This document shows positions 2,159 through 59,143 of a DNA stretch of 64,000 bases, piece after piece; the first letter of the stretch is position 1, and each line of letters starts with the position of its first letter. Source of the DNA: Octopus vulgaris (Eukaryota). The stretch is taken from the NCBI GenBank assembly GCA_951406725.2, contig OX597814.1, forward strand, positions 55,862,001-55,926,000. Reading direction: 5' to 3'. Below the pieces are notes generated by a model. That model ran no database searches. It was not told where the DNA came from and worked only from the letters and a program-made list of their open reading frames with translations. A program made the position numbers and the translations under genes.

Positions 2159-2479
2159 TATATATACATATACATGTATATATGTATATATATATATGTG
2201 TGTGTTTGTGCTTGTGTGTGTGTTTGTGCTTGTGTGTGTATGTGTGTGTGTGTGTATTTGTTTTTCATCCCCACAGTTGCTTAACAACTGGTGTTGGATT
2301 GCTTGCTTCTCTATATCTAAGTTGCTTGGCATAGGAAACCAATACATTAAGCAGCTGGCTTTAAAATAAATACTGGGTTGATTTGTTAAAAAAAAGTTCT
2401 TTAAGGCTGTGCCCCAGCATGGTTGCAGTCCAGTGACTGAAATGAGTAAAAGATAAGATAAATGAACATCTATTCTCAT

Positions 2480-2622
2480 GTTCTCTTATCTCTACCTACC
2501 AAATTCACTCACAAGGCTTTGGTTAGACCAGGGTTATAGTAAAAGACACTTGCCCAAGATGCTATGCAGTAGGACTGAACCCACAACCATGTGGCTAGAA
2601 AACAAACTTCCCACCACACAAT
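2480..2622 (-). mobile_element. SINE family A head fragment
   Basis: Reverse complement of the family A head (gacacttgcccaag...ggactgaacccacaaccatgtgg). Confidence 0.75.
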
Positions 2623-2779
2623 GACAAAAAAATTTTTTCACTCAAAATACAGATTTAATGTCAAGCAAGGTGACTAATAGATTAGAATTTTTTAATTGTT
2701 ATAATAATTACTGTAGCTTTCAATTCTCTCTAGAAAATGACATGTTAATCATTGTTATTCATTGATATTGTCCAGATGT

Positions 2780-2994
2780 AAGATAGTGGGTTGGCAAAAT
2801 GGTTAGCATGCTGTGCAAACTGCTTAGCAGTATTTCATCCATCTTTTTGTTCTGAGTTCAAATTCCACTGAAGTTGACTATGCTTTTCATTCTTTCAGGC
2901 TTGATCAAATAAATACCAGTTGAGCACTGGGGTCAATGTAGTTGACTTAACCCCTCCCCCAAATTTACTGGCCTTGTGACTAAATCTGAGACCA
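2780..2994 (+). mobile_element. tRNA-derived SINE family B (Nin/Deu-domain-like)
   Basis: B-box-like gagttcaaattcc, then gcttttcattctttcaggcttgatcaaataaataccag (Deu/Nin-like core). Candidate TSD atattgtcc on both sides. Confidence 0.8.
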
Positions 2995-4164
2995 ATATTG
3001 TCCTTGTATCTTTATGTTGGTATGAGTTGGGTAGTTCTGTAATACATTATCCTGCTGTGTGCTTCAGTGCTGTGAATTATTAGTTATTTTAGATTAGTGG
3101 TTAGGAACCATTTCAGTACTAGGGTCAAATTAGAAGCGACATGTCCTAAGTGCTGCACAGTGGAACTGAACCCAGAACCATATGGTTGTGAAACAAACCT
3201 TAATCATAAAACCATTGGTATGGCATTACTATTTCAGTCTCTGAGATTAGGCATTGTTTTTTCTTTAATGGGTTTTTAAATACTTTGTTAACAGAGAGCT
3301 TCAAATCTGAACATAGATAAAATATTGTCTACAGGTGAGGAGTTGCTTACGCTTGATATGGATTGCTGTCCATGTGAAGTATTAGTCTATAGAGGTCACT
3401 CTTTCGATATGCCATTCATTTAATCTTTGCAAGGATAAAAGGAGTGAGATGTATGAAAAATTTCTTCAGCTGACTTCTGCACTTTAAAGTATAAAATAAC
3501 CCAGTTATAAGGACTTTATTATAATTCATTGTTGAGGAAAACATCTGTGAAACATTTATGTTATTAGTTATAATATTAATAGAATTTTATTATAGATTCA
3601 GATAAAAAAAAAATAACTGAAAATAATGAGATTATTTAATTTGTACAAACATAGCTAAGAATTAATATGTTTATTAAAATTGATTCCCTTGACTATAACA
3701 TTGGCAATTTAGCATTTAACTCACAAGAATTAAGCTTTATTATCTGTTTAAAATGTGGAGTAAACAATTCTGCTTGAAACATAATATAGTGTTAACTTTG
3801 ATATTGAAATAAAATTAACTTCACAATATATTATACATGTCGTTAAATATAATTCTAGCATATTCTAAGTAAAGCAAAAAAGACCCTTTAATAATATCAT
3901 TTTTTTTCTATTGAAAACATATTTCTCTGAATGAATAGATAGACTAGATTAATGTATCACCAATCTGATAAGTTTCTGAGAATTGTGTATTATGAGAAGT
4001 TCTTTAATATTTGTATCTGTAGACCATCTTTGAAATGCCTTTTTTTTACTGACTCTCATTTATAAACATGGTGAACTACCAGATTATGAAGAACAAAATT
4101 GATCTTAGCTGATTTTAAACTTAGAAGACTCAGAACAAATACTACAAAGTATTTTGTCATCCCA

Positions 4165-4315
4165 CCACAAACTCCATTCCTTGTTGCAGTGTGATGACTT
4201 GTGTCCTCAGTGACTTTGAGAGCGATGCCAACAGAGCATAAGCTCTTGGTAGGGTTGCCTATGATGGACAGGTCAAAGGATAGAGACCAGTCTAATATTG
4301 GCCACCTCTTTCCAG
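4165..4315 (+). mobile_element. RTE-clade LINE 5' UTR-like fragment
   Basis: ccttgttgcagtgtgatgacttgtgtcctcagtgactttgagagcgatgcc...ggtagggttgcctatgatggacaggtcaaagg resembles BovB/Expander-type leaders. A related copy is at ~43385-43470. Confidence 0.5.
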
Positions 4316-5224
4316 AGGTAAAAATGAATTTGCATAGGATGTACACTCCTACCTAGGAAAATGCAAGGTTATGGAAAGTCAATGACAATTCAAAATCAAC
4401 AAGACATGAGAAAAGGCCTTAAGAAACAGGTTATAGTTGAGAACAGTGGAGAAAAGTTGTTGATGGCTTATAGGGAATGAAAGGCTTAATAAAAATATTG
4501 GTTTTCTCAACACTTTCATTATTCTGTCAAAAAAAAAAACTCCATGGGAAAATAACATAAATAGATCAGTGGTTCATATCCTGTATATTGCTTTCTGTTG
4601 TTAGAAAACCGAAGTAGTTAATTATTTGTATCCCAGCTGCAAATAGACATATATCGGACTACATTTCAATGCTCTTTGCAATGAGAAATACAATTCTATT
4701 GAGCTGCCATAAGCTTTATGTAGTTCTGGCTTCAGTTCCTCCCATAGTAGGCAACAAGGTAATGGCTTTCTATCTTAAATCCCTACATGAAGTTATATAT
4801 TTCATTGATGCCTAGTAACCCAATGTGTTTGGAGATATCACTTTTCTTCATTTTCTTTTCATTTCATTAGAATATGGTTGAAAGTGATTTTGCCTTTCAC
4901 TGATGTCAATAAAATAAATATTGTTAATATGCAGGGGCTGATTTAAGGAGTTGTATACCCTCCTCTTTGTTCCAAAGTGAGAATTAATTATTTCACTAAT
5001 AACAGTAATGATAATTTCTTAGATCAGGCTAGAAGTTATATTGACCAAGGTACTTGAATGGCATTTTACTTTATTGATCCTGGGAGGATGAAAGGTAAAG
5101 TTGACCTTGGCATGATTTAACTTTAGAATATAAAGAGCCAGAATAAATACAAGGCATTTTATCAACACTTTAACAATTTAGGAAAATACTCTAAACAGAT
5201 TGATAAGCCAGAATGAAACACCGG

Positions 5225-15869: not shown

Positions 15870-17127
15870 CAGAGGTTGGACAAAATAATGGAAACACCTA
15901 GCATCATAAGTTTGAAATAGCTATAAAACCATCAAAAGCTTGTTAATTTTAATGTTTTTTTTATTTATTACTAGTGTTGCTTAATATGTTTTGCTACAAT
16001 TGCTTTTCTTTTCAGATATCACCAGAAAAAGGTAATTCAAATTCATTAAAATGACAGATCTGTCAGACTTTCAAAGAGGTCAAATTGTTGGTGCTCGTAT
16101 GGCAGGTGCTAGCGTAATGAAAATAGCCAAAATGTTTGGTGTATCAAGAAGTACTGTCTTGAAAATAATGACAGCCTTTGAAAAAGAGGGAAAAACCTCA
16201 TCATTGAAACAAAACTTTTGAAGAAAACCAAAACTTTCAGATGGGGACCATCGAACTCTTACGCAAATTGTTAGAAAGAATCACAAAAGTACAGTTCACA
16301 AAATTACTGCAGAGCTTAATGACCTCCTCAAGAACCCAGTTTCCACAAAAACTGTTTGCCGGGAGCTGCACAAAGCTAGATTTCATGGGAGGGCTGCAAT
16401 CAGAAAACCACTACTTTCAAAAACAAACGTTGCAAAGTGTTTAGAGTGGAGTAAAAACCTACAGAATTGGTCCCTAGCACGGTGGAAGAATGTTAATTTC
16501 TTGGACGAGTCATCCTTTACCCTATTTCCGACTATCAGCTGAGTATACGTGTACAGACAATCAAAAGACGCATTTGACCCAGACTGCCTTCTTCCAACTG
16601 TTAAACATGGAGGATCTGTGACGATCTGGGGGGGGCTATATCTTGGAAATCCGGCGGCCCAATGGTTTCCCTTCATGGTAGAATTAATAGTCAAGTCTAT
16701 TTAAGCATTTTATCTGATCAAATTCATCCTATGGTTGCGGAACTGTTTCTGGAGGGAAATGCAATCCTTCAGGATGATAATGTACCGATTCACACAGCTA
16801 AAGTTGCTACTGAATGGCACGAGGAACATTTTAGTGGCGTTGATCATCTTATCTGGCCACCACAGCCCCCTGATCTCAATATTATTGAACATTTATGGTG
16901 CATTTTAGAAAAACAAGTAAGGAGTTATCCTCCATCATCACTACAAGAACTAGAGACTGTTTTAGCTGAAGAATGGACAAAAATTCCTTTGGAAACAATT
17001 CAAACTTTGTATGAGTCCATACCTCATAGAATTCAAGCTGTAATTACTGCCAAAGGTGGTCCTACCCCATATTCAAATAAATTTATTTGAAATTTTAATG
17101 TGTTTCCATTATTTTGTCCAACCCCTG
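15870..17127 (+). mobile_element. Tc1-like DNA transposon, DD36E (Incomer-type), full length 1258 bp
   Basis: 28-bp TIRs CAGAGGTTGGACAAAATAATGGAAACAC / CAGGGGTTGGACAAAATAATGGAAACAC (1 mismatch); TA TSD at 15868-9 and 17128-9. Confidence 0.95.
16051..17090 (+). pseudogene. DD36E transposase pseudogene
   Basis: MTDLSDFQRGQIVGARMAGAS...FLDES...QDDNVPIHT...PDLNIIEHLW with 36 residues between D and E. TGA stops at 16219 and 16540; frameshift in the G run near 16630. Confidence 0.93.
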
Positions 17128-20864: not shown

Positions 20865-22151
20865 CAGGGTGCAATGATTAAATTGTTGCCATTTTATATG
20901 TTTAATTTCGTGCATGTGCATTGTTTGTTTTTGATTTTGTTGACTACATAGTATAGTAGGGTCAGTTGGGCCCTGCCTGTGAGAAAAACAGCACCATGAT
21001 GCAATTCACTCTCCCAGAAATTTGGAAACAATGTGTTGTACTGCTTTGCATTTGCACTGGAAGCTCCAATGCAAACATTACAGAGTGTTTGGGTGTCAAT
21101 CTGAGGACAGTGCAGAGAATTCAGAAAGAGTTGGATGAGTCTAATGGTGACTATGAAAGTACGGCAGCTCAGAAAACTCACTCTGATCATTCTAATTAAG
21201 AAAAGAACTTCTGAATTTGTTGGTGAGATCCAAACCATGATTGACAATGAGCCCTCGAAGTCAATCAGATCCATTTCCAGGGACATGGGATTGTCTGACT
21301 TTCTTATCAGGCAGATAGTTCAGGAAGACATTCAATATTCCTCGTACAAGATGAGAAAGGGTCAATTTTTATCCCAAGCCATTAAGGACATAAAGAAAGA
21401 CCATACTACAAAGCTTTTGAACAAACTCAAGCATCACCTCCAACAAAACATGCTTTGGTTTTTCTCAGACGAGAAAAATTTCTGCCAGGATCAGATGGTG
21501 AACACACAGAACAACCGTTGGCTTGCCATGTCCCCAAAACATGTACCAAAAGTGATAAAAATCAAACATCCAGTCAATATCTTAGTGTTTGGAGTAATCA
21601 CTAATGATAGTGATGTTATGTCTCCATTCATCTTCCCATGTGGCCTCAGACTCAACACAGAGGCCTACATCAAGTACCTGGAGGAGGTAGTGCTGCCCTG
21701 GGTCAAGAGGGTGGCTGCTGGAAGACCCTATGTCTGGCAACAGGACTCTGTACCATGCCACACAAGTAGGAGAACCCAGCCATGGCTGTCAGATAATTTC
21801 TGTAACCACATTACCCCTAACATCTGGCCACCTAACTCCCTAGACTGCAACCTTCTTGATTATTATGTGTGGGGTGCAATTGAGCAAGAGACCAACAAAA
21901 CTCCTTGTAATACCAAAGATGAACTGAAGGCAAGAGTTATGGTAGCATTCACCAACTTAAACAAGGAGACTGTCCAGAAGAGTTGCAGGAGATTCTGAAG
22001 TCATCTGGAGGCTGTGGTTCAAGTCATGGGGATTTTATTGAATAAATTTACTCTTTAGTATTTAATTTTGGTAAATATATCTATTAAAATGAAATGTCAG
22101 TGTTATTTTCATTTTTGTGTAATTCGATGACAATTTATTCACCACAACTTG
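20865..22151 (+). mobile_element. maT-family (DD37D) DNA transposon, full length, decayed
   Basis: Degenerate TIRs CAGGGTGCAATGATTAAATTGT / CAAGTTGTGGTGAATAAATTGT (rc) inside TA-rich flanks; transposase inside. Confidence 0.9.
20996..22045 (+). pseudogene. DD37D transposase pseudogene
   Basis: HTH-like start (LGVNLRTVQRI), frameshift near 21195, then FSDEK...QQDSVPCHT...WPPNSLDCNLLDYYVW with 37 residues between D and D. Premature TGA at 21996. Confidence 0.92.
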
Positions 22152-22199: not shown

Positions 22200-22428
22200 A
22201 TAGTTTCCTTCTTGAGTCATGCTGACTCATAAGGGCCGGTTTCACAGTTTCCATGGTGTATATATTTCCCACCTGGATGGGGTGCCAGACTATTGCAGGA
22301 TTACTCTTTTTTGCCTGTTGAATGGACTGGAGCAAGGTGAAATGAAGTGTTTTACTCAAGAACCAGTCCAGGAATTGAAGCCACAATCTTATGTTCAACA
22401 CCCTAACCACTAGGCCACTATGCTCTTC
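22200..22428 (-). mobile_element. tRNA-derived SINE (distinct family)
   Basis: Minus head tagtggcctagtggttagggtg...ggcttcaattcc, CORE-like cttgagtaaaacactt, then ctggcaccccatccagg...gaaaccgg. Confidence 0.65.
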
Positions 22429-23260
22429 AACAGAAAGGAACACAGAAATAAACAGGGAGAGAAAAGAAAAAGAAATCATGGTGATTTTATTCAATAAATT
22501 GAATAAAAAAATTGTGTGTGTCTTTCTGTGTATGTATGTATACTATATGTATATATATATGTCTATGTATGATATATTATTATATATAGAGAGAGCAAGA
22601 GGTACATGCTCACACATACAATGTGTCCAATTAATATAGTAACAAGATTAACATATACAGCAGGATTGATGGTAAGTGCTTTATTAGTACTATACTTATA
22701 TTGTCTCCAACTTGTACAAACAGTTGGGCATTTAAGGCTAATCTAACACTTGGAATAGAGTTAAGATATAACAAACATACTTCAAAATAAATGCTTACAA
22801 ACTAGCAATTTTAATTCAGCAACTTGTATTTGCTCTGTTGTTCTAACTTTTATGAATGACTGGGCGGGCGTTTAAGGTTAATCCATTATTCGGTACAGTT
22901 CCCAGCTCTGACTCACTTTAGATTAAATAAATTACAGTAACAAAATTAAATAGTGACAGCAAACAAGCAGACTAAATTCATTTTTGTCAGATGCTCTTAA
23001 CAGATTTGGCATTTAATTTTTCCATTTTGATATGTTAAACTCATCAAACAATAATCTATTGAACTAATTATTATTTTTCTCATTAATAAGTTTGGTTAAA
23101 TGAATCAAATTATTATTAGTATAGTACAATGAATATAATGTTAATTAATACCCCTTAAACTGAATTAGAATTTTGAAACAAATAAGGCACATTAAATTGT
23201 GTACATTTTCTACTTCAACATGCTGCTAAGTGAAACAATATATATATATATATATATATA

Positions 23261-23455
23261 TGTGACCTCGTGAAGACCACTTGCATTTTTTTTCCCTCTG
23301 TACTCCCACCTTGGGATCTTTCTTTCTCCTATGTTTCCGACGAAGAGCTCCGCTCGAAACGTCATATCCTCCTTCTTCCCTTCTTTCCTGAGCGCCCAAT
23401 AATACTTTATTTGTTCCACATCCTCACGTTGTTGTCATTTTGTTTTCTTGTTTGG

Positions 23456-23463
<8 letters not shown>
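23261..23463 (+). mobile_element. ~200-bp hammerhead-motif element inserted in (TA)n (Penelope pLTR/retrozyme-like)
   Basis: CCGACGA-A-GAGC-TCC-GCTC-GAAA-CG-TC at 23337-23363. Shares gctcgaaacgt and ttcctgagcg with 53678-53870; TA arrays on both sides. Confidence 0.7.
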
Positions 23464-23501
<38 letters not shown>

Positions 23502-36400: not shown

Positions 36401-37671
36401 TTGGGTTGGCATGTAAGTTCCCACTGGTTTTTTTAATTTTGGAATTTATTGGTTTTTAAGTTTTGGAATCTATTTTTTTCGAGAATTCTATTTTTGAATC
36501 ATTTTGGAATCTATTTTGTTTTTTTTTTTCTAGTTAATTTTAGTTAATTTTTGTTTATTTTCAGATCATTAAAATGGAAAGTCAAGTTAAGAAAAACGAG
36601 CATTTTCGACACCTTTTTGCTTTTAATCAAAGTTCTAAGGCTGCAAAAGCTGCTCACAGCATTTGTGCTGTGTATGGAGAGGGTGCCATAGCTGAAAGAA
36701 CTGCTCATAATTGGTATGCTAAGTTCAAAAATGGAAATTTTGACCTCAAAGACGCACCTCATTCTGGCCGTCCAGTTGAGTTTGATGAAGAGCGATAAAC
36801 CAACTTTTGCACAAAAATTCTCATCAAACAACAAGGGAACTAGCAGAGAAAATGGAATGTTCCCACACTGCTATAGAGAAGCATCTTCACTCATAGTATG
36901 GAGCATGGGTTCCGTATGCTTTAAGTGACAACAACAAAAATCAATGAGTCACAATCTCCACTGGTTTGCTTGCCAGTCACCGCTTAACTCATGGACACAA
37001 GCAACAATTTCTTTGCTGTATCATTGCTGGTGATGAAAAATGGTGAATGTACATCAATATGAAGCAGTGTAAGGGATGGCTTAGTCCTAGTAAATAAGCG
37101 ACACCGCACATGAAACAAGATCTTCATCCGTGTAAAACGATGTGTGTATGGTGAGACTGGGAAGGGCTTATCCATTATGAATTGCTTGAATGGAACCAAA
37201 TGGTCAACGTGGAACTCTATGTTCAACAGATGGAATAACTCAACATGAGAAAAGACCTAATCGTTAGCATGGAGTTCTACTGCTGCATGACAATGTCCGC
37301 CCTCATATTACCAATATGACCAAGGAAGCCATTCAAATGCATGGCTGGGAAGTGCTGCCACACACGCTGTACTCTCCTGATTTGGCACCAATGGATTTCA
37401 ATCTCTTTCGGTCTCTTTCAAATGCTATGTGCTGAGTTTTGTTCAATACTGTTGCAGAATTGAGAGAATGGTTGGATCAATTTTTCGAGTCAAAATCATT
37501 TGATTTCTACCAACGAGGTATTGAAAACCTTGTTGAATGTTGGGAAGAAGTTGTAAACAACAAGGATGAATACATTATTGATTGTTATTTTTTATTAAAC
37601 ATTTTTAAAAGATTTAAATTTTTAAAAAATTTAAATTTAAAAAAACGGTAGGAACTTAGTTGCCAACCCAA
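36401..37671 (+). mobile_element. mariner DNA transposon (DD34D), full length, decayed
   Basis: TIRs TTGGGTTGGCATGTAAGTTCC / TTGGGTTGGCAACTAAGTTCC (rc); TA TSD at 36399-400 and 37672-3. Confidence 0.95.
36574..37585 (+). pseudogene. mariner transposase pseudogene, DD34D
   Basis: MESQVKKNEHFRH...SGRPVEFDE, WVPYAL, GDEKW, HDNVRPH...YSPDLAPMDF with 34 residues between D and D; multiple stops, frameshifts and small deletions. Confidence 0.93.
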
Positions 37672-50105: not shown

Positions 50106-53100
50106 GTTGACCTGTTTACTCCAACAACTAAGTTAATATGCAGATTTCTTTTTCTATTTCTTTCTTTTTTTTGTAAAGTTAGAATTTTGCTAAAACATCT
50201 GGATGTTCACAGTTGAACTACTTTTCCTCATTAATCTGTTTGATTTGGATTAGACATACTCTGTATCAATGGGTTTTCAAGTTCTTTTTCTTCTGCTATA
50301 GAGTCATACGCAGCAGTGCTGGCTTACTCCATGTGAAGAATATAGTGTAAAATGGTTGGAATACCATAAAAAAGATACCTGACATATATTATTTGTTATA
50401 AATCCCACAATGGTCAACTTTGCCGTCCACCCTTCTAGGGTTGATAAAATTAAGTATCAGTTAAGTACACTAGTTGATATAATTCACTGTTACCCCTTCC
50501 TAAATTTTTAACCTTGTACCTATGTAACAAACAAAATTCATTAAATTTAATATTACATTTTCAATGAGCTGGATACATTAAGCTCTTTCTAACAAGTAAC
50601 TCAATTCCAGGTACAATTTCAGAAAGTCATATTCACATTTGACTATGTTGCACAAAATTTGCTTTTGCTTATAAACATTGCTGTAAAACTTACACAGCCA
50701 TACAATTATTTTTGTGTGTAACCCTACAAGTATGCATAACTCAGCTTGAGAAACCCTACACTAAATGATAAAACAGCAGCCAACCCTCTTTCAAATCATA
50801 CCCTATTTTCCTACTTTCTTAAAAAAAGGAAATGACATACAGGTCGTTGTAATCTTATATGTACTAAAAAAATAATAAAGACAGTGATGGTCACAGGTAG
50901 AATGGCTGGTCACACGTCTTTCAAGACTGATCTAATAAATAACAACAAAAATGAGGAAAAAGTTAATGGCTCTAAGTAAATTCCGTGCTGTAATCAACTC
51001 CAGTACATTTTCCATTGACACATGAAGCAAAGTTAAATCGGGTAAGCAGAATAAAAATGAATACCAAAATTTATGAATGGGTCTCAAACTGATAACTATA
51101 TTGACCATTCTGTATGAGCATTCATTTGAGTGTCGCTATTATTTTTTGAAAACAGAAATCACAAGTAAATGAGTAAAGAGAGAATTCTGTATTATAATCG
51201 GTGGCTATAACTGTGCATGAGTTGTGTCATAGTGAGATACCAAATATATATATATAAAGGAAAACAGCCTTCATCATTTAGTGATGACAAATTAATTTTT
51301 TTGTCTATATTACTAAGGAACCTTATTTGTCTACATACGCCAAAGGCACGATAAATGCAATTTTAATTCCATCTAAGAAATACATTGTTGACAAACAATA
51401 ATGTTACTTTAAGCATATGTATATGAAATAAATAAGAAAATAATATATTTTAATCAACTATATTTTACTACACTTTTCGTCTTCCGTAAGTATTATTTGC
51501 CAATCAAAACCATTAACTTTCAGCTCCTTGGATACCGGAAGCTCTTTCTGATTACACTGCTCTAAAGTTTCTCGTGTTATTTTCTTCATGTTCTTACAAA
51601 ATAGGATATACGTGGCTATAAAGGTAGGGATGTTGCTCATCTTTCAAGCTATCGCTAACTCTTTAAAAATAGTTTCAGGTTAAAATAAAATGCTGTTTAT
51701 TTATACATCTCCCTGAAAGGTTCTTGAGACTGACACTTGCTTTGACGGTGGTAACGTGTATTTGTGTTGCGTGTGTATAAACATACATATAGACATGTGT
51801 ATGTAGGCACGCTGATAGTAGTGAGAGAATGTTTAATTGTTTTCGTTCTGAATAGCAGCAGATAGATTGTCGGAGATAATTAACACTATAAACAAAAAGA
51901 GCTCACCAACCCGTACACGAAATAAAGAGATATCTTTTTATTTTATTTTAATTATGAAATATCAGGCTTTGTTAAATACTACTGCTACTTCCCTCTGCAT
52001 CTCGTATGTGTTGATTATAAAAAATAAAAAAAACATTTCTTTCCCGCCCACTTTCAAAAAACATTCATTCATGATAAGGATAATTACTTTATAATATTAA
52101 TGATAAGTAATTTGATTATCTTTTGCATTATTAGGATTGGATCGGAATTTTTTTTGCCCCTTGTTTTCTTTTTTGGATATAGATTGCGTACGAACTATGA
52201 GAAGCTGTGACAGTTTTCAACTTCACTTAACCGAGTGTAGATTAACATTCCATTAGCTAAAAACTTACCAATCCGACTATACTAGTCCTAATGAAGAAAA
52301 TGTACGTTGCTTCACCGGCTAGAAATAGCAACAAAATCTTCCATTCACACCCTACATCATAAATAAATATATGTTAAACAAGGTTTTCCACCATAAACTA
52401 GACGGGATTATCATGGTTGCACATAGGTTCGCTTAAACAGTGTTTACCCGTGGCTAACACATGTAGTCTGTAATAGGTTGAAGCTGCTTGTAACAGAAAA
52501 CAGCGGTACTTCTATGTAGTTTTTTAAATTTTTATTTTTCTGTATTGTACATACACACCTACATACAACACACCTGTTTATACACACATACAGACATCAT
52601 ACATACATACATAAAGACAGATATACATCATCTTTTCAATATTCACTTTTCCTTGCTTGCATCGGTCATAGGTTGAGCTCGATTTTCTTCGGCCGGACAC
52701 CCTTCCTGTCGACCAACCCTTTCATGTTTCCAAGTCAGATATTTCTTCTCGTCCTTCGAATATATATGCATTTTTAAAGATATATATTTGTTGACGTTCT
52801 GCGAGTAGCCTTCAACATTTTTTTTTAATATGCAAAGGGTTTTTAACCCAATATTTACACATTATTTATAGCTTTATCTGCTTTGTGTTCCACCGTTCAA
52901 AAAAAAAAGTGTGTGTATGATTGTGACATACCTACACAAGTGTGTCCCGCTCTGCCGGCTTTGTTTCCTCATAACTTTTAGAAAAATGGATATTTTTAAA
53001 TGACATTTTCTACAAATATGGTTCAGATAGTGTAGATTACGATTATATCAGAATTTGTTGTGGAAAAGTTTTTCCGAGGGTGTGGAGAGGAATTTTGGAA

Positions 53101-53538
53101 AATTCGCACGAGCCAGCTTGTTTGCCAACACAGATCAACACTAACCTCTTTTGAGCCTATTTGATCAGTTAGTCGGCCCATGACTATAGTAGAAGACACT
53201 TGCCCAAGGTATCGCGCGGTGGGACTGAACCCGAGGCAGCATGGTTGAGAAACAAGCTTCTTGCCATGCAACTAAGCATGAGCCCATCCACCCACTCATA
53301 GATAGATACAACCCCTCCCCCATAAAGATAAAACAAGTAAACAATTGGTATCAAGTCAGATTATGACATTTATATATAAACATTGGCGCAACATGAGGGT
53401 AGAATTGAACGTTGCGAAAGATTAGACTACAAGATCAGTTGAGGAATGTTTATAATGGTTTTGCTAGTATTCCCCTGGAATACGGTAAGACCAAATTATT
53501 GCCATTAGGTGAAGCTGGATGAGAAGGTGTACAGATAG

Positions 53539-53634
53539 TCTCTTACAGCTGTTTCACGAATAGATGTGCAGGTAGTGCATTTCCATACAATCAATCGGTA
53601 ACTTACGTTATGGCAATCTATTCAGTCAGAGAAA
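53539..53634 (-). ncRNA. Decayed hammerhead-like motif with long stem II
   Basis: Minus TTTCT-CTGACT-GAATAGAT...ATCTATTC-GT-GAAAC-AGCT-GTA-AGAGA; 5-bp stem I, 8-bp stem II base, palindromic AGCT loop; 5' core non-canonical. Confidence 0.55.
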
Positions 53635-53677
53635 GGATGAGATAGGACATGCATACGTGTGTGTCTGTATGTATGTA

Positions 53678-53870
53678 GGGCCATGATAGATCGTTAGCCA
53701 CTACACACACTTTTTTCTCTCCTTGTTTTTTCTGCGTACCTTTCTGTAGAAGAGCGTAGGCTCGAAACGTAAAAGACTTTTTCTATTCCTGAGCGTTATA
53801 CTAATACATCTGTTTGTTTTGTACACCACCTGTCTTCGTCTTTTGTTTTGTTTTTTCGTTAACTTTCCCT
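53678..53870 (+). mobile_element. ~190-bp hammerhead-motif element in microsatellite flanks
   Basis: Homologous to 23261-23463; flanked by (TATG) and (TA) tracts. Confidence 0.7.
53740..53775 (+). ncRNA. Minimal type I hammerhead-like motif
   Basis: CTTT-CTGTAGA-A-GAGC-GTAG-GCTC-GAAA-CG-TA-AAAG: perfect 4-bp stems I and II, ACGU palindrome at helix III, predicted cut after 53771; A6U core change. Confidence 0.7.
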
Positions 53871-53962
53871 ATATATACATGAAAAATCGTGCGGGTGTTA
53901 ATCTGTAATTTTACCAAAAAGTCAAGGTAGAAAATGCTGAAATAATTTTATAAAAAACATTT

Positions 53963-53998
53963 CAGTACCGGTTTCGGTCATTGAGACTTTTTCAACTG
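53963..53998 (-). ncRNA. Minimal type I hammerhead-like motif, U3-A8 variant
   Basis: Minus CAG-TTGAAAA-A-GTC-TCAAT-GAC-C-GAAA-CCGG-TA-CTG: stem I CAG/CTG, palindromic CCGG loop, GUA cleavage triplet. Confidence 0.7.
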
Positions 53999-54228
53999 TA
54001 AGTATGGAAAGCAATTAAATTTTGTAAAAATTAAATGATAAGTATTATTTTAAAAGAATATTTCCATAGTATTCAAATACAAGATGCATTTTCCTTGTTT
54101 CTGCCTGTCTCTGTCTCTCTTGTTTACTCTGTATATATATTGGCACACACATTATCCAATACAATTATTGTTTAGTCATAAAGATATACATTACAGAAAA
54201 TTAAACGCCAAACGATATACTAGAACAA

Positions 54229-54230
<2 letters not shown>

Positions 54231-54301
<71 letters not shown>

Positions 54302-54376
54302 GTATTTGTATATATTGTTTATATACGTATCCTTCTATATATGTATAGTTTCTATGTATAACATGTATAGTATTTC

Positions 54377-54447
<71 letters not shown>

Positions 54448-54450
54448 ATA
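54231..54450. repeat. Compound (TG)n(GA)n and (TA)n microsatellites
   Basis: Direct reading. Confidence 0.97.
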
Positions 54451-56699
54451 AACACAAATATATATATACACATACACAAAACACATCCATGTGCTAATAT
54501 ACTCTCTCGCTCTCTCACACACACACTCTCTTTCTCTCTCCCCTCCTCTCACACACATAAACAGTTTCGAGGGGTAACCAATAAGTCGGTTAGTTGCCAG
54601 CTGTCTTATACGATGGTGACATTGAACATTTCCCAAGAAATACTGCTGTTTGCGTGATAACTTGATATACCATACTTCCTAAAGCACGAACACCAAGAGT
54701 TAATTTTGACTATCAACTGAAATTGGTTTCTTTGCAAATAGTTATAGCTTCTTTTTGAAATGTGTGTATGTCATGAACCTACCCATTTTTTTACTTATGT
54801 AAAAAAGAAAAAAAAACTTGTTAAAGCGTAATTCGAAATTATGTAGTTGACAACATATACGGGTGTGCCCATATAGTTGCACAAACCCCATAATTGCAGT
54901 CACTAACTAGGCCAACCTGCTAGATTGAGGAAGCAAAACCATCTTCGAATAAAACAAACATAAGCCACCAGTAGTTATATACAACACACACATACACATA
55001 TTGGATCAGGGCTGACCAGAGGCAAAACTGCGACAACAAACTCCTTGTCATGTTTTAATTTCTGTGGAGGATATCTGCTTTATACACGGGACTGGACTAG
55101 TTAGTAGATTGTGGTCAGACCTTCTTTAGTGCATATTAGTTCTTGCTAAAACTGAGGCGAATACCAACCACCGCGATCATCGTCATATAACACAAGCGGG
55201 TCTCAGTTTGCATTCTTACCATTTAAGTTTGAAGTTTTCTTTTCTGATGTAACCTGCTTTAACCATACCTACCTACTCATTTGATATATTCTAGCCGTAT
55301 CTTAATGCCCTCCATAATTCGTGTTTATTGTTGTTGAAGAAACTATGCATGTGTTTATTGTGAGCGTGTCTGATTTTGTGTACATATGTTGGCTCTGTTG
55401 TTAAACCCCCAAGTCAGTCGCATCACAAAAGACCTACTAGACTTGATCATCCCCTTCATTTTTCAAATGTTATATACCAAAGATCATATTGTGTAATGTG
55501 CTCCTTTTTTAAAAAAATTCAGAACGTAATTTGATAGCTATTTAGCTGGGATTTCTAATAGACGGTTCGTTGGCTTGTTGCTGTGCAAAAATGTTTATTC
55601 AGTTTTCATTTATAGCTGTCATTCTTTCTTAATCAGACTTAATTTTATAACTGTCATTCTTTCTTAATCAAATTTCCTGTTGCATAAAATCATTATCATC
55701 AGCTTGTTATTACCTTCGTAATTTAAAAGAAAAATTAATCACCTAAGTCAATTAATTACTTAGAATTGGATCTGGGAGAAGTTTAATTTCCCTTGTTTTC
55801 ATTTATTTTTATATCTATAACTTGAATCTACTTAAATATTATTAGTCATTAAAAGCATGAACCCTACCATGATTTCAGTTTTCTGATGCGCTAAATCCGA
55901 GGTCTATCAATAAGAAACTATTTTTCTTTCCCTTTTAATCTTTTTTACTTTCCACAACTTTATCGCCACCTTCTACTTTTTTGCTTACATTTTTTTTAGC
56001 AAATTGCTCCATAAGGTCAGTTTCGATAAAACAGATGTGTTACAATCAAAGCCATTCCATCCTTGACACCGTCTTTTTTTCTCAGACATTGCATCAAACA
56101 CTACATTATCTAGAGTGCTCTTTTTAAGATGTTAGATGTTGAGGGAAATTTGGCTGCTATTTCTGGAAGGTCGATCGATCGAACATGTAGAAGCTCTTTC
56201 ATTAGTTCGTTTTACAGTCATTTAGCAGAATTAGCAGTCAACAACTTAAGTGTTTCATTCTTTCAGTATAGGTGAAATAAATGTCATTAATGTAGGTAGA
56301 TTGAGAAGGTTGCCATTCTTTTCTAATTCCTGAATCTGGTATGTTCAGACCTAGGATATCAGAAATTGAATCGTTAAATATCTGATTGTTGATGAAATCC
56401 TAGAATCAACATTTGTCCCACATAAAAATAAAAAAAAATCAACAAAATCTTAACGCTCAGTCTTGATTTATTCTTGAATATAATATTAGCTCATCATAAC
56501 CATTATTGTCATCTATACCACCAAAATGGATGTGGTACAAATTTTGCAGCTTTTCACAATAGCTGTGACTAATGCCAAAGAGTGTTAAAGAATGCCAAGA
56601 CTTGCTTTATTGAAGATGTTCAAATGAGGATTGAGCAAGAAGAAGCTTGGTTCATGTGAATTTTGGGGAATAGCCAGTAAGATACATAATCATGTATCT

Positions 56700-58978: not shown

Positions 58979-59143
58979 ATGACAAGGGAGCTGGAATTGT
59001 GTAATCAATTTGATTAGCTTACAGCTGTTTCTGCTATAAGAAGCAGTGTACTCAAAGCTGAGTTGGAGCCATTAATGGCTCTTACAGCTGAAAAAGCTGT
59101 AAACTAATGCAGTTGATTACAATAATTCCTGTTCTTTTGTCAT
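58979..59143. repeat. ~165-bp imperfect foldback with hammerhead 3' halves
   Basis: atgacaa...gtaatcaa...ttacagctgtttc and gaaaaagctgtaa...ttgattac...ttgtcat are inverted; GAAAC-AGCT-GTA on minus at 59020-59031. Confidence 0.8.

Follow-up and report, generated by a model that had tools for sequence, protein, structure and literature searches.

The closest described relatives of the locus reported here are the minimal hammerheads of Penelope-like elements (PLEs), which follow the type I order, have a helix I of 3-5 bp and a palindromic helix III that needs a dimer, may carry an extra nucleotide after A9, and occur as dispersed copies, mostly single truncated pieces, some of them 100-700 bp apart on opposite strands (PMC4209133). 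These ribozymes do not cut as monomers and show low cutting as dimers (PMC4209133). Their carriers insert at microsatellites, with a bias toward TA, and beside earlier copies (PMC8557442; PMC6765202). A second comparison is offered by the animal non-LTR retrozymes, short non-coding hammerhead-bearing repeats that are probably mobilised by PLEs (PMC7229834; bioRxiv 10.64898/2026.07.22.740005). How far may a hammerhead depart from its consensus? Mismatches in the core or at 10.1-11.1 are criteria for rejection in PMC3088659, and changes to CUGA give low activity (PMC9901934); A6C, as well as an insertion after A6, leaves activity low yet detectable (PMC3088659), and a natural A6C hammerhead is slow but active and is improved by Mn2+ (PMC3088659, PMC7151607).

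The locus under study lies in an AT-rich stretch of octopus DNA of 64,000 nt (the window), which is rich in microsatellites and SINE-like repeats. Three hammerhead-like motifs, M1, M2 and M3, stand close together in it:

53539-53634, minus strand: M1, a hammerhead-like motif; stem I 53630-53634 with 53539-53543, CUGAC at 53629-53625, G12 at 53555, cut expected after 53544
Stem II region of M1, minus strand: helix of 8 bp between 53616-53623 and 53558-53565, enclosing a branched loop of 50 nt
53740-53775, plus strand: M2, a minimal hammerhead; stem I CUUU/AAAG, stem II GAGC/GCUC, ACGU palindrome, cut expected after 53771
53960-54001, minus strand: M3, a minimal hammerhead; stem I CAG/CUG, mismatch A53988.C53976 and then GUC/GAC, ACCGGU palindrome, cut expected after 53966

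In our judgement the cluster probably records three independent insertions by Penelope-type machinery that are now inert at the locus. The locus is likely to be ordinary retroelement debris with motifs that are likely inert, and the cluster is a further instance of an already known kind; its own weight is small, in that it illustrates the accumulation at microsatellites of retroelement ends that bear hammerheads.

The architecture shared with the PLE hammerheads is readily seen. As the original prediction had it, three GAAA-palindrome-UA halves stand at the predicted sites (53544 and 53966 on the minus strand, 53771 on the plus strand), and all three motifs run in type I order (stem I, core, stem II, GAAA, stem III, UH, stem I) with a palindromic helix III (M1 ACAGCUGU, M2 ACGU, M3 ACCGGU) and a helix I of 3-5 bp. 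Stem I, which had been described as intact, is indeed paired next to the core in each motif but is short: 5 bp in M1 (one of them G.U), 4 bp in M2, and 3 bp followed by a mismatch and 2 bp in M3. Three hammerhead motifs are present, then, but not three intact ribozymes; a strict type I descriptor has no site in the 64,000-nt window. The standard core (C3U4G5A6N7G8A9 or the U3-A8 form, with G12A13A14, A15.1-U16.1 and H17) is found in M3 only, by way of U3-A8, and is absent from M1 and M2, and only M2 has a paired 10.1-11.1 beside the core, this position being A.C in M3 and, in M1, paired in no register that also has G8/A9. When one deviation and a loop II of up to 12 nt are allowed, the window holds two sites, M2 and M3; these are its sole near-matches, so that their promotion to best candidates in the window holds in a relative sense, each being flawed. 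A loop II of up to 90 nt raises the number to six sites, against a mean of 3.5 over 12 shuffles, and M1 is still not one of them.

Could motifs of this kind be chance look-alikes in AT-rich repeat DNA? The Rfam hammerhead models give no match, either at the gathering score or at E values up to 10, apart from microsatellite hairpin noise, and a relaxed descriptor finds about one match per window by chance (mean 0.82 per shuffled window, 400 shuffles). Rfam hammerhead models fit minimal forms poorly. Against chance, of 400 shuffled windows 4 have two relaxed matches within 460 bp, none of 5000 shuffles of the stretch itself does, and 20000 shuffles of the 500-nt stretch produced three 3' halves 5 times, all with descriptors that were fixed after the motifs had been seen. 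Moreover, a diverged sister of M2 elsewhere in the window (described below) has the same layout, with A6 and another stem II loop, and the core of M3 is a published variant (PMC4209133). A chance origin is, in our estimation, scarcely credible.

The motifs belong to longer repeat copies:

53380-53640, minus strand: carrier of M1, an old low-copy repeat; borders approximate, paralogue depth at 53516-53590
53678-53869, plus strand: carrier of M2, a copy of ~190 bp of a very abundant repeat family, with a TA-run end
53880-54100, minus strand: carrier of M3, a copy of ~220 bp of a medium-copy repeat family; right border approximate (depth 53888-54104, pieces 53916-54095)
53371-53378: TA run bordering the M1 carrier on its left; extra TA is present here in paralogues
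53650-53677: degenerate GT/ATGT microsatellite between the M1 and M2 elements
53870-53877: TA run that the M2 and M3 elements, lying tail to tail, have in common at their 3' ends

We placed contigs from four DNA-type runs (four studies) on 53330-54230 at 80% likeness, and they form three separate depth blocks, one per family. These separate depth profiles in the four runs, together with the lack of any blast match among the three, bear out the earlier assignment of the motifs to unrelated families. Summed depth divided by single-copy depth, which gives an order of magnitude and not a copy number, is ~27000-98000 for M2, ~2300-4400 for M3 and 17-72 for M1; contigs drop rare variants, and the depth is dominated by abundant short contigs. 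For a genome of 2.8 Gb, a size derived from a figure of 19 Mb = 0.68% (PMC13282606), these ratios lead one to expect 0.6-2.2 M2 copies per 64 kb, and the window has two (at 53678 and at 22418-22465), and therefore no excess. The M2 element is bounded by a depth step at 53671-53701 and by loose ends, some at 53680 (in 127 contigs, with an agreement of 0.4) and others at 53849 that lead to CCC and then T/TA. The three single non-coding copies from three families would likely be truncated pLTR-type pieces, and a Penelope-like enzyme would be their carrier. The link to PLEs is one of architecture, because there is no RT or GIY-YIG remnant beside the pieces (0 of 141 ORFs); the locus differs from the published PLE hammerheads in this respect, no PLE reading frame having been seen at it, and in the flaws of its M1 and M3 copies. 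Elsewhere in the window lie what we take to be broken remnants of Tc1/mariner-type transposases (1569-1964, 16208-17090, 20960-21998 and 36544-37651).

With the same carrier, a different source element can be considered: the pieces might be monomers or fragments of non-LTR retrozymes and not ends of coding PLEs. Retrozyme monomers would look like these PLE-type pieces. The lengths of ~190-260 bp without an ORF fit this origin, as does the 2-bp helix III of M1 and M3, which resembles that of invertebrate retrozyme hammerheads (PMC7229834), and retrozymes, which originate from PLE pLTRs, do also exist as solo monomers (bioRxiv 10.64898/2026.07.22.740005). However, there are no head-to-tail repeats at 53250-54250, where neither a tandem unit nor copies of one element in partial tandem or inverted arrangement were found; helix I, at 3-5 bp, shows no sign of the canonical 6-bp stem and its loop-loop contacts, so that the locus is unlike the described retrozymes in array, helix I and tertiary contacts alike; and M2 has the minimal ACGU form with an extra A. 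We regard a retrozyme source as unlikely.

Returning to debris of Penelope-type insertion, each motif departs from a working design in its own way. M1 has the 3' half GAAAC AGCU GUA, with its AGCU loop, but G8 and A9 are out of register, and no register combines G8/A9 with a paired 10.1-11.1. From its sequence, M1 appears to be ~4 nt short at the junction of core and stem II relative to the published consensus. At 11.2 its family has U in 85-89% of contig depth and the M1 copy itself has G. The 8-bp helix forms with pair probabilities of 0.80-0.98 in isolation and 0.00 with 220 nt of context. Paralogues scarcely cover the 5' half (including 53609-53639); their joints link 53340-53378 and 53430-53460 to 53522 onward, and a single opposite-strand joint is seen in one contig each in three of the four runs. 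We considered an 8-bp direct repeat flanking M1 (53517-53524 and 53635-53642) as a target duplication and dropped it, because paralogue matches run past the repeat. A re-wired (non-circularly permuted) reading of M1 was also set aside, there being no second core string nearby. At 59020-59100, two neighbouring AGCT-centred palindromes resemble the 3' half of M1; the upstream core string is absent there.

In M3 the core is complete and reads U3 U4 G5 A6 A7 A8 A9, the known U3-A8 variant, and the 3' half is GAAA CCGG UA; against the descriptor it has no core mismatch and one closing mismatch, the A.C of stem II. The same core letters, followed by A, occur in Cercyon PLEs and in Schistosoma mansoni families 3 and 4 (PMC4209133; the variant also in PMC3088659), and S. 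mansoni family 4 has the same eight letters as M3 (PMC4209133). Unlike these hammerheads, M3 has a shorter stem II, a CCGG-centred palindrome, and a core-adjacent pair that is A-U in its family or A.C in the copy at this locus. U3 is the norm of the M3 family, because every A>G change in each of the four runs is accounted for. At 53976 (11.1), U makes up 68-92% of the family's contig depth and provides the A-U pair, and the M3 copy has C; since the same C is common to 8-32% of the family depth, the closing mismatch may be a trait of a subfamily. An alternative register, with a G10.1-C11.1 pair and one extra letter before G12, is possible; an extra A before G12 is found in 1 of the 56 published representatives (PMC4209133). 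Whether M3 has an unpaired nucleotide between A9 and 10.1 depends on the register. The loss of ~4 nt at the core and stem II of M1 and the A.C closing pair of M3 would lower or abolish activity. Against inertness, M3 retains all of its core letters, and, on its sequence, it might cut as an engineered dimer.

M2 raises a different question. Its core is C3 U4 G5 U6 A7 G8 A9 followed by an unpaired A, its 10.1-11.1 pair is G-C, and its 3' half is GAAA CG UA; it has U at position 6, where the 56 representatives in PMC4209133, found with a descriptor that required A6, all have A. The canonical A at 53747 accounts for less than 10% of contig depth in three of the four runs, judged from the best 40 of 54 difference rows; for run X2 the rows listed cover all T>A, T>G, A>G, A>T and C changes, as checked against the totals by kind, for X3 there is one T>A row beyond those listed, and per run one such T>C row could be 53747. 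The family does vary at N7 (A>U in 14-43%) and at H17 (A>U in 2-22%), and the M2 copy agrees with the family majority at every listed core position. We therefore view U6 as a trait of the M2 family and not as decay of the copy at 53740-53775, because both the family depth and a paralogue at 22418-22465 show it.

That paralogue, the only one in the window, lies on the opposite (minus) strand and terminates before GAAA; it is a truncated, CpG-decayed copy with the core CUGUUGA (U6, U7), interrupted in loop II by another repeat. At 23263-23465, on the plus strand, there is a diverged sister of ~200 bp with the core CCGACGA (A6 but C4) and a broken stem I. The sister has (TA)n on both sides, the same stem II arms, ACGU palindrome and downstream motif as M2, an unpaired nucleotide after A9 as in M2, and a different stem II loop, and it has kept eight CpGs although it lies outside the CpG-retaining island described below.

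The nearest described counterpart of U6 is the A6C hammerhead of phage Bcep176 (PMC3088659, PMC7151607), likewise a natural change at position 6 with low activity expected; it differs in having C and not U, and in being a single phage ribozyme with assayed activity, as against tens of thousands of predicted copies of an animal repeat. In the literature searched we found no natural, family-wide A6U hammerhead, and the two papers listed with the term A6U concern other RNAs by their titles; variants at position 6 may be covered by Luense et al. 2017, who treat small variants of PLE hammerheads. Exact and near-exact family patterns had no match in viral, prokaryote-genome or metagenome contigs. 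A degenerate U6 pattern had seven matches in metagenomes, six of them without stems and chance-like. A U6 hammerhead-like motif on an animal-like metagenome contig (L005, 2867-2894, plus strand; 37% GC, no long ORF) is probably decayed, and we rejected it as support for a conserved U6: it is a single copy, has a stem II mismatch and shows no blast match to the window.

What if the U6 family is active? A doubtful but coherent proposal is that the M2-family hammerhead, with its near-invariant A6 changed to U, retains cutting in the dimeric form, at a slow rate or with an altered preference for metal ions, its stems and other core letters being under selection as N7 and H17 drift. If so, the accepted hammerhead core in animals widens, in a single genome tens of thousands of copies escape searches based on CUGANGA, and there is a natural test of whether Penelope-type elements need ribozyme cutting at all. 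The M2 copy, with its family-majority core free of CpG decay, would then be a direct test substrate.

For the locus, the corresponding reading is that M2 (with U6) and M3 (with U3-A8 and a tolerated mismatch) are working variant ribozymes that cut slowly by pairing in trans with RNA of their families. The family-majority core of M2, in which U6 is normal while N7 and H17 vary, is consistent with this, as is the slow but real activity of the natural A6C form (PMC3088659, PMC7151607). Family contigs with differing flanks lose their match at the motif edges, 53739 and 53780-53781, and two joints fall on the cut site of M2, one contig at 53771 and one at 53772 (2 of the 15 joints listed, 49 in all). 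Yet no pile-up of family ends is seen at the M2 cut site among the matches listed (best 24 of 1573 loose-end rows), and a consistent depth step across it was not found in the four runs; the M2 homodimer helix has just 4 bp, at -1.7 kcal/mol; even canonical minimal hammerheads are weak as dimers (PMC4209133); and a fixed mutation can also be amplified by a dead master copy. We consider it distinctly unlikely that M2 and M3 work as such variants here.

Inertness, the favoured reading, follows from the design of the motifs and their surroundings: M1, M2 and M3 are likely inert because their design is non-standard and no partner copy is nearby. No partner of the same family was found in cis at the locus for any of the three. 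Helix III would need a second, identical copy, and even then published experience predicts weak cutting. The homodimer helix III is calculated at -11.1 kcal/mol for M1 and -8.3 kcal/mol for M3. The three palindromes are incapable of cross-pairing, and M2 is alone on the plus strand; an M1-M3 heterodimer was rejected, at -2.7 kcal/mol and without terminal A15.1-U16.1 pairs. A partner in trans could in principle come from the abundant RNAs of the M2 family. Stems I and II of M2 fold within 0.2 kcal/mol of the minimum in isolation, and the pair probability of stem I is 0.03-0.25 in isolation and 0.00 in a context of 200-220 nt for all three motifs, values that count as weak evidence, folding programs being poor on hammerhead junctions and dimers. 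The residual activity once proposed for the motifs is thus unlikely in place, because minimal hammerheads are inactive as monomers and weak as dimers in the published PLE data (PMC4209133) and no partner in cis was found. As engineered homodimers, we would expect M3 to be more active than M2, and M2 more active than M1.

How did three families come to lie together? The pieces would have been inserted one after another, at microsatellite runs of TA or GT. Of the seven element ends examined, five have a TA run no more than 3 nt away, as do 2.3% of random positions; the 5' ends of the M2 and M3 elements are not at TA runs and adjoin GT- and CT-type repeats. Five hammerhead-bearing fragments were found in the window, three of them within 430 bp, an arrangement reached in 260 of 200000 uniform draws in a post hoc calculation. 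An insertion hotspot, as had been proposed, is supported insofar as the fragments are more clustered than uniform placement would make them, but the remaining two also lie close, ~900 bp apart, and outside the island. Targeting of microsatellites and of earlier copies accounts for the clustering without the island, because the element ends adjoin TA runs and the other two fragments cluster outside it.

The island itself had been correctly recognised, with a CpG o/e of 0.72 (51001-56000) against 0.19 (1-50000):

51001-56500: CpG-retaining island; ten of eleven 500-nt bins have an o/e of 0.59-0.92, a microsatellite bin has 0.35, and the flanks have 0.0-0.25

Without the elements its o/e is 0.69. 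It is likely an unmethylated gap between CpG-depleted domains, and it may, as a candidate, be a gene start, because many octopus genes, a large class, carry methylation in their bodies but lack it at their starts (PMC9476566). Could the host, then, retain the cluster as a means of cleaving promoter-proximal transcripts of both strands? The motifs lie in mid-island, in octopus the gene starts of this large class are unmethylated (PMC9476566), and the segment 53330-53707, which includes M1, does not differ between contigs of two runs labelled as different organisms; this identity, between two close samples, includes the flanks and therefore reflects recent common descent and not selection. Against host retention, all three motifs are off the working design, M1 and M3 being also off their own family majority, there is no partner in cis, and no gene was identified by splice-signal exons or Pfam. 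Pfam matched none of the 141 ORFs of at least 36 aa at 48.5-59.5 kb (low-complexity ORFs removed first), and a search for exons by their splice signals yielded 24 candidates across the window, with none at 46-57 kb and no convincing one near the island. We hold such a role to be highly improbable. Nor has low CpG decay safeguarded the motifs: their flaws are present regardless, two of them at CpG-forming letters. Departures from the family majority that form CpGs are found at 53557 (M1), 53976 (M3) and 53735 (M2 flank), and they are to be expected because new CpGs are not eroded in the island; U6 is not a CpG site.

Two observations on the island stand apart from the hammerheads. At its left edge there are a consensus-like splice donor (51480-51492, plus strand) and a 61-aa open frame (51461-51643, minus strand) with no Pfam match, features that possibly represent a first exon. 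Within it, at 53169-53270, lies a SINE-like copy with 5 CpGs in 102 nt, compared with 0-2 in its 11 other blast matches in the window, and this copy is a clean internal marker of the methylation boundary.
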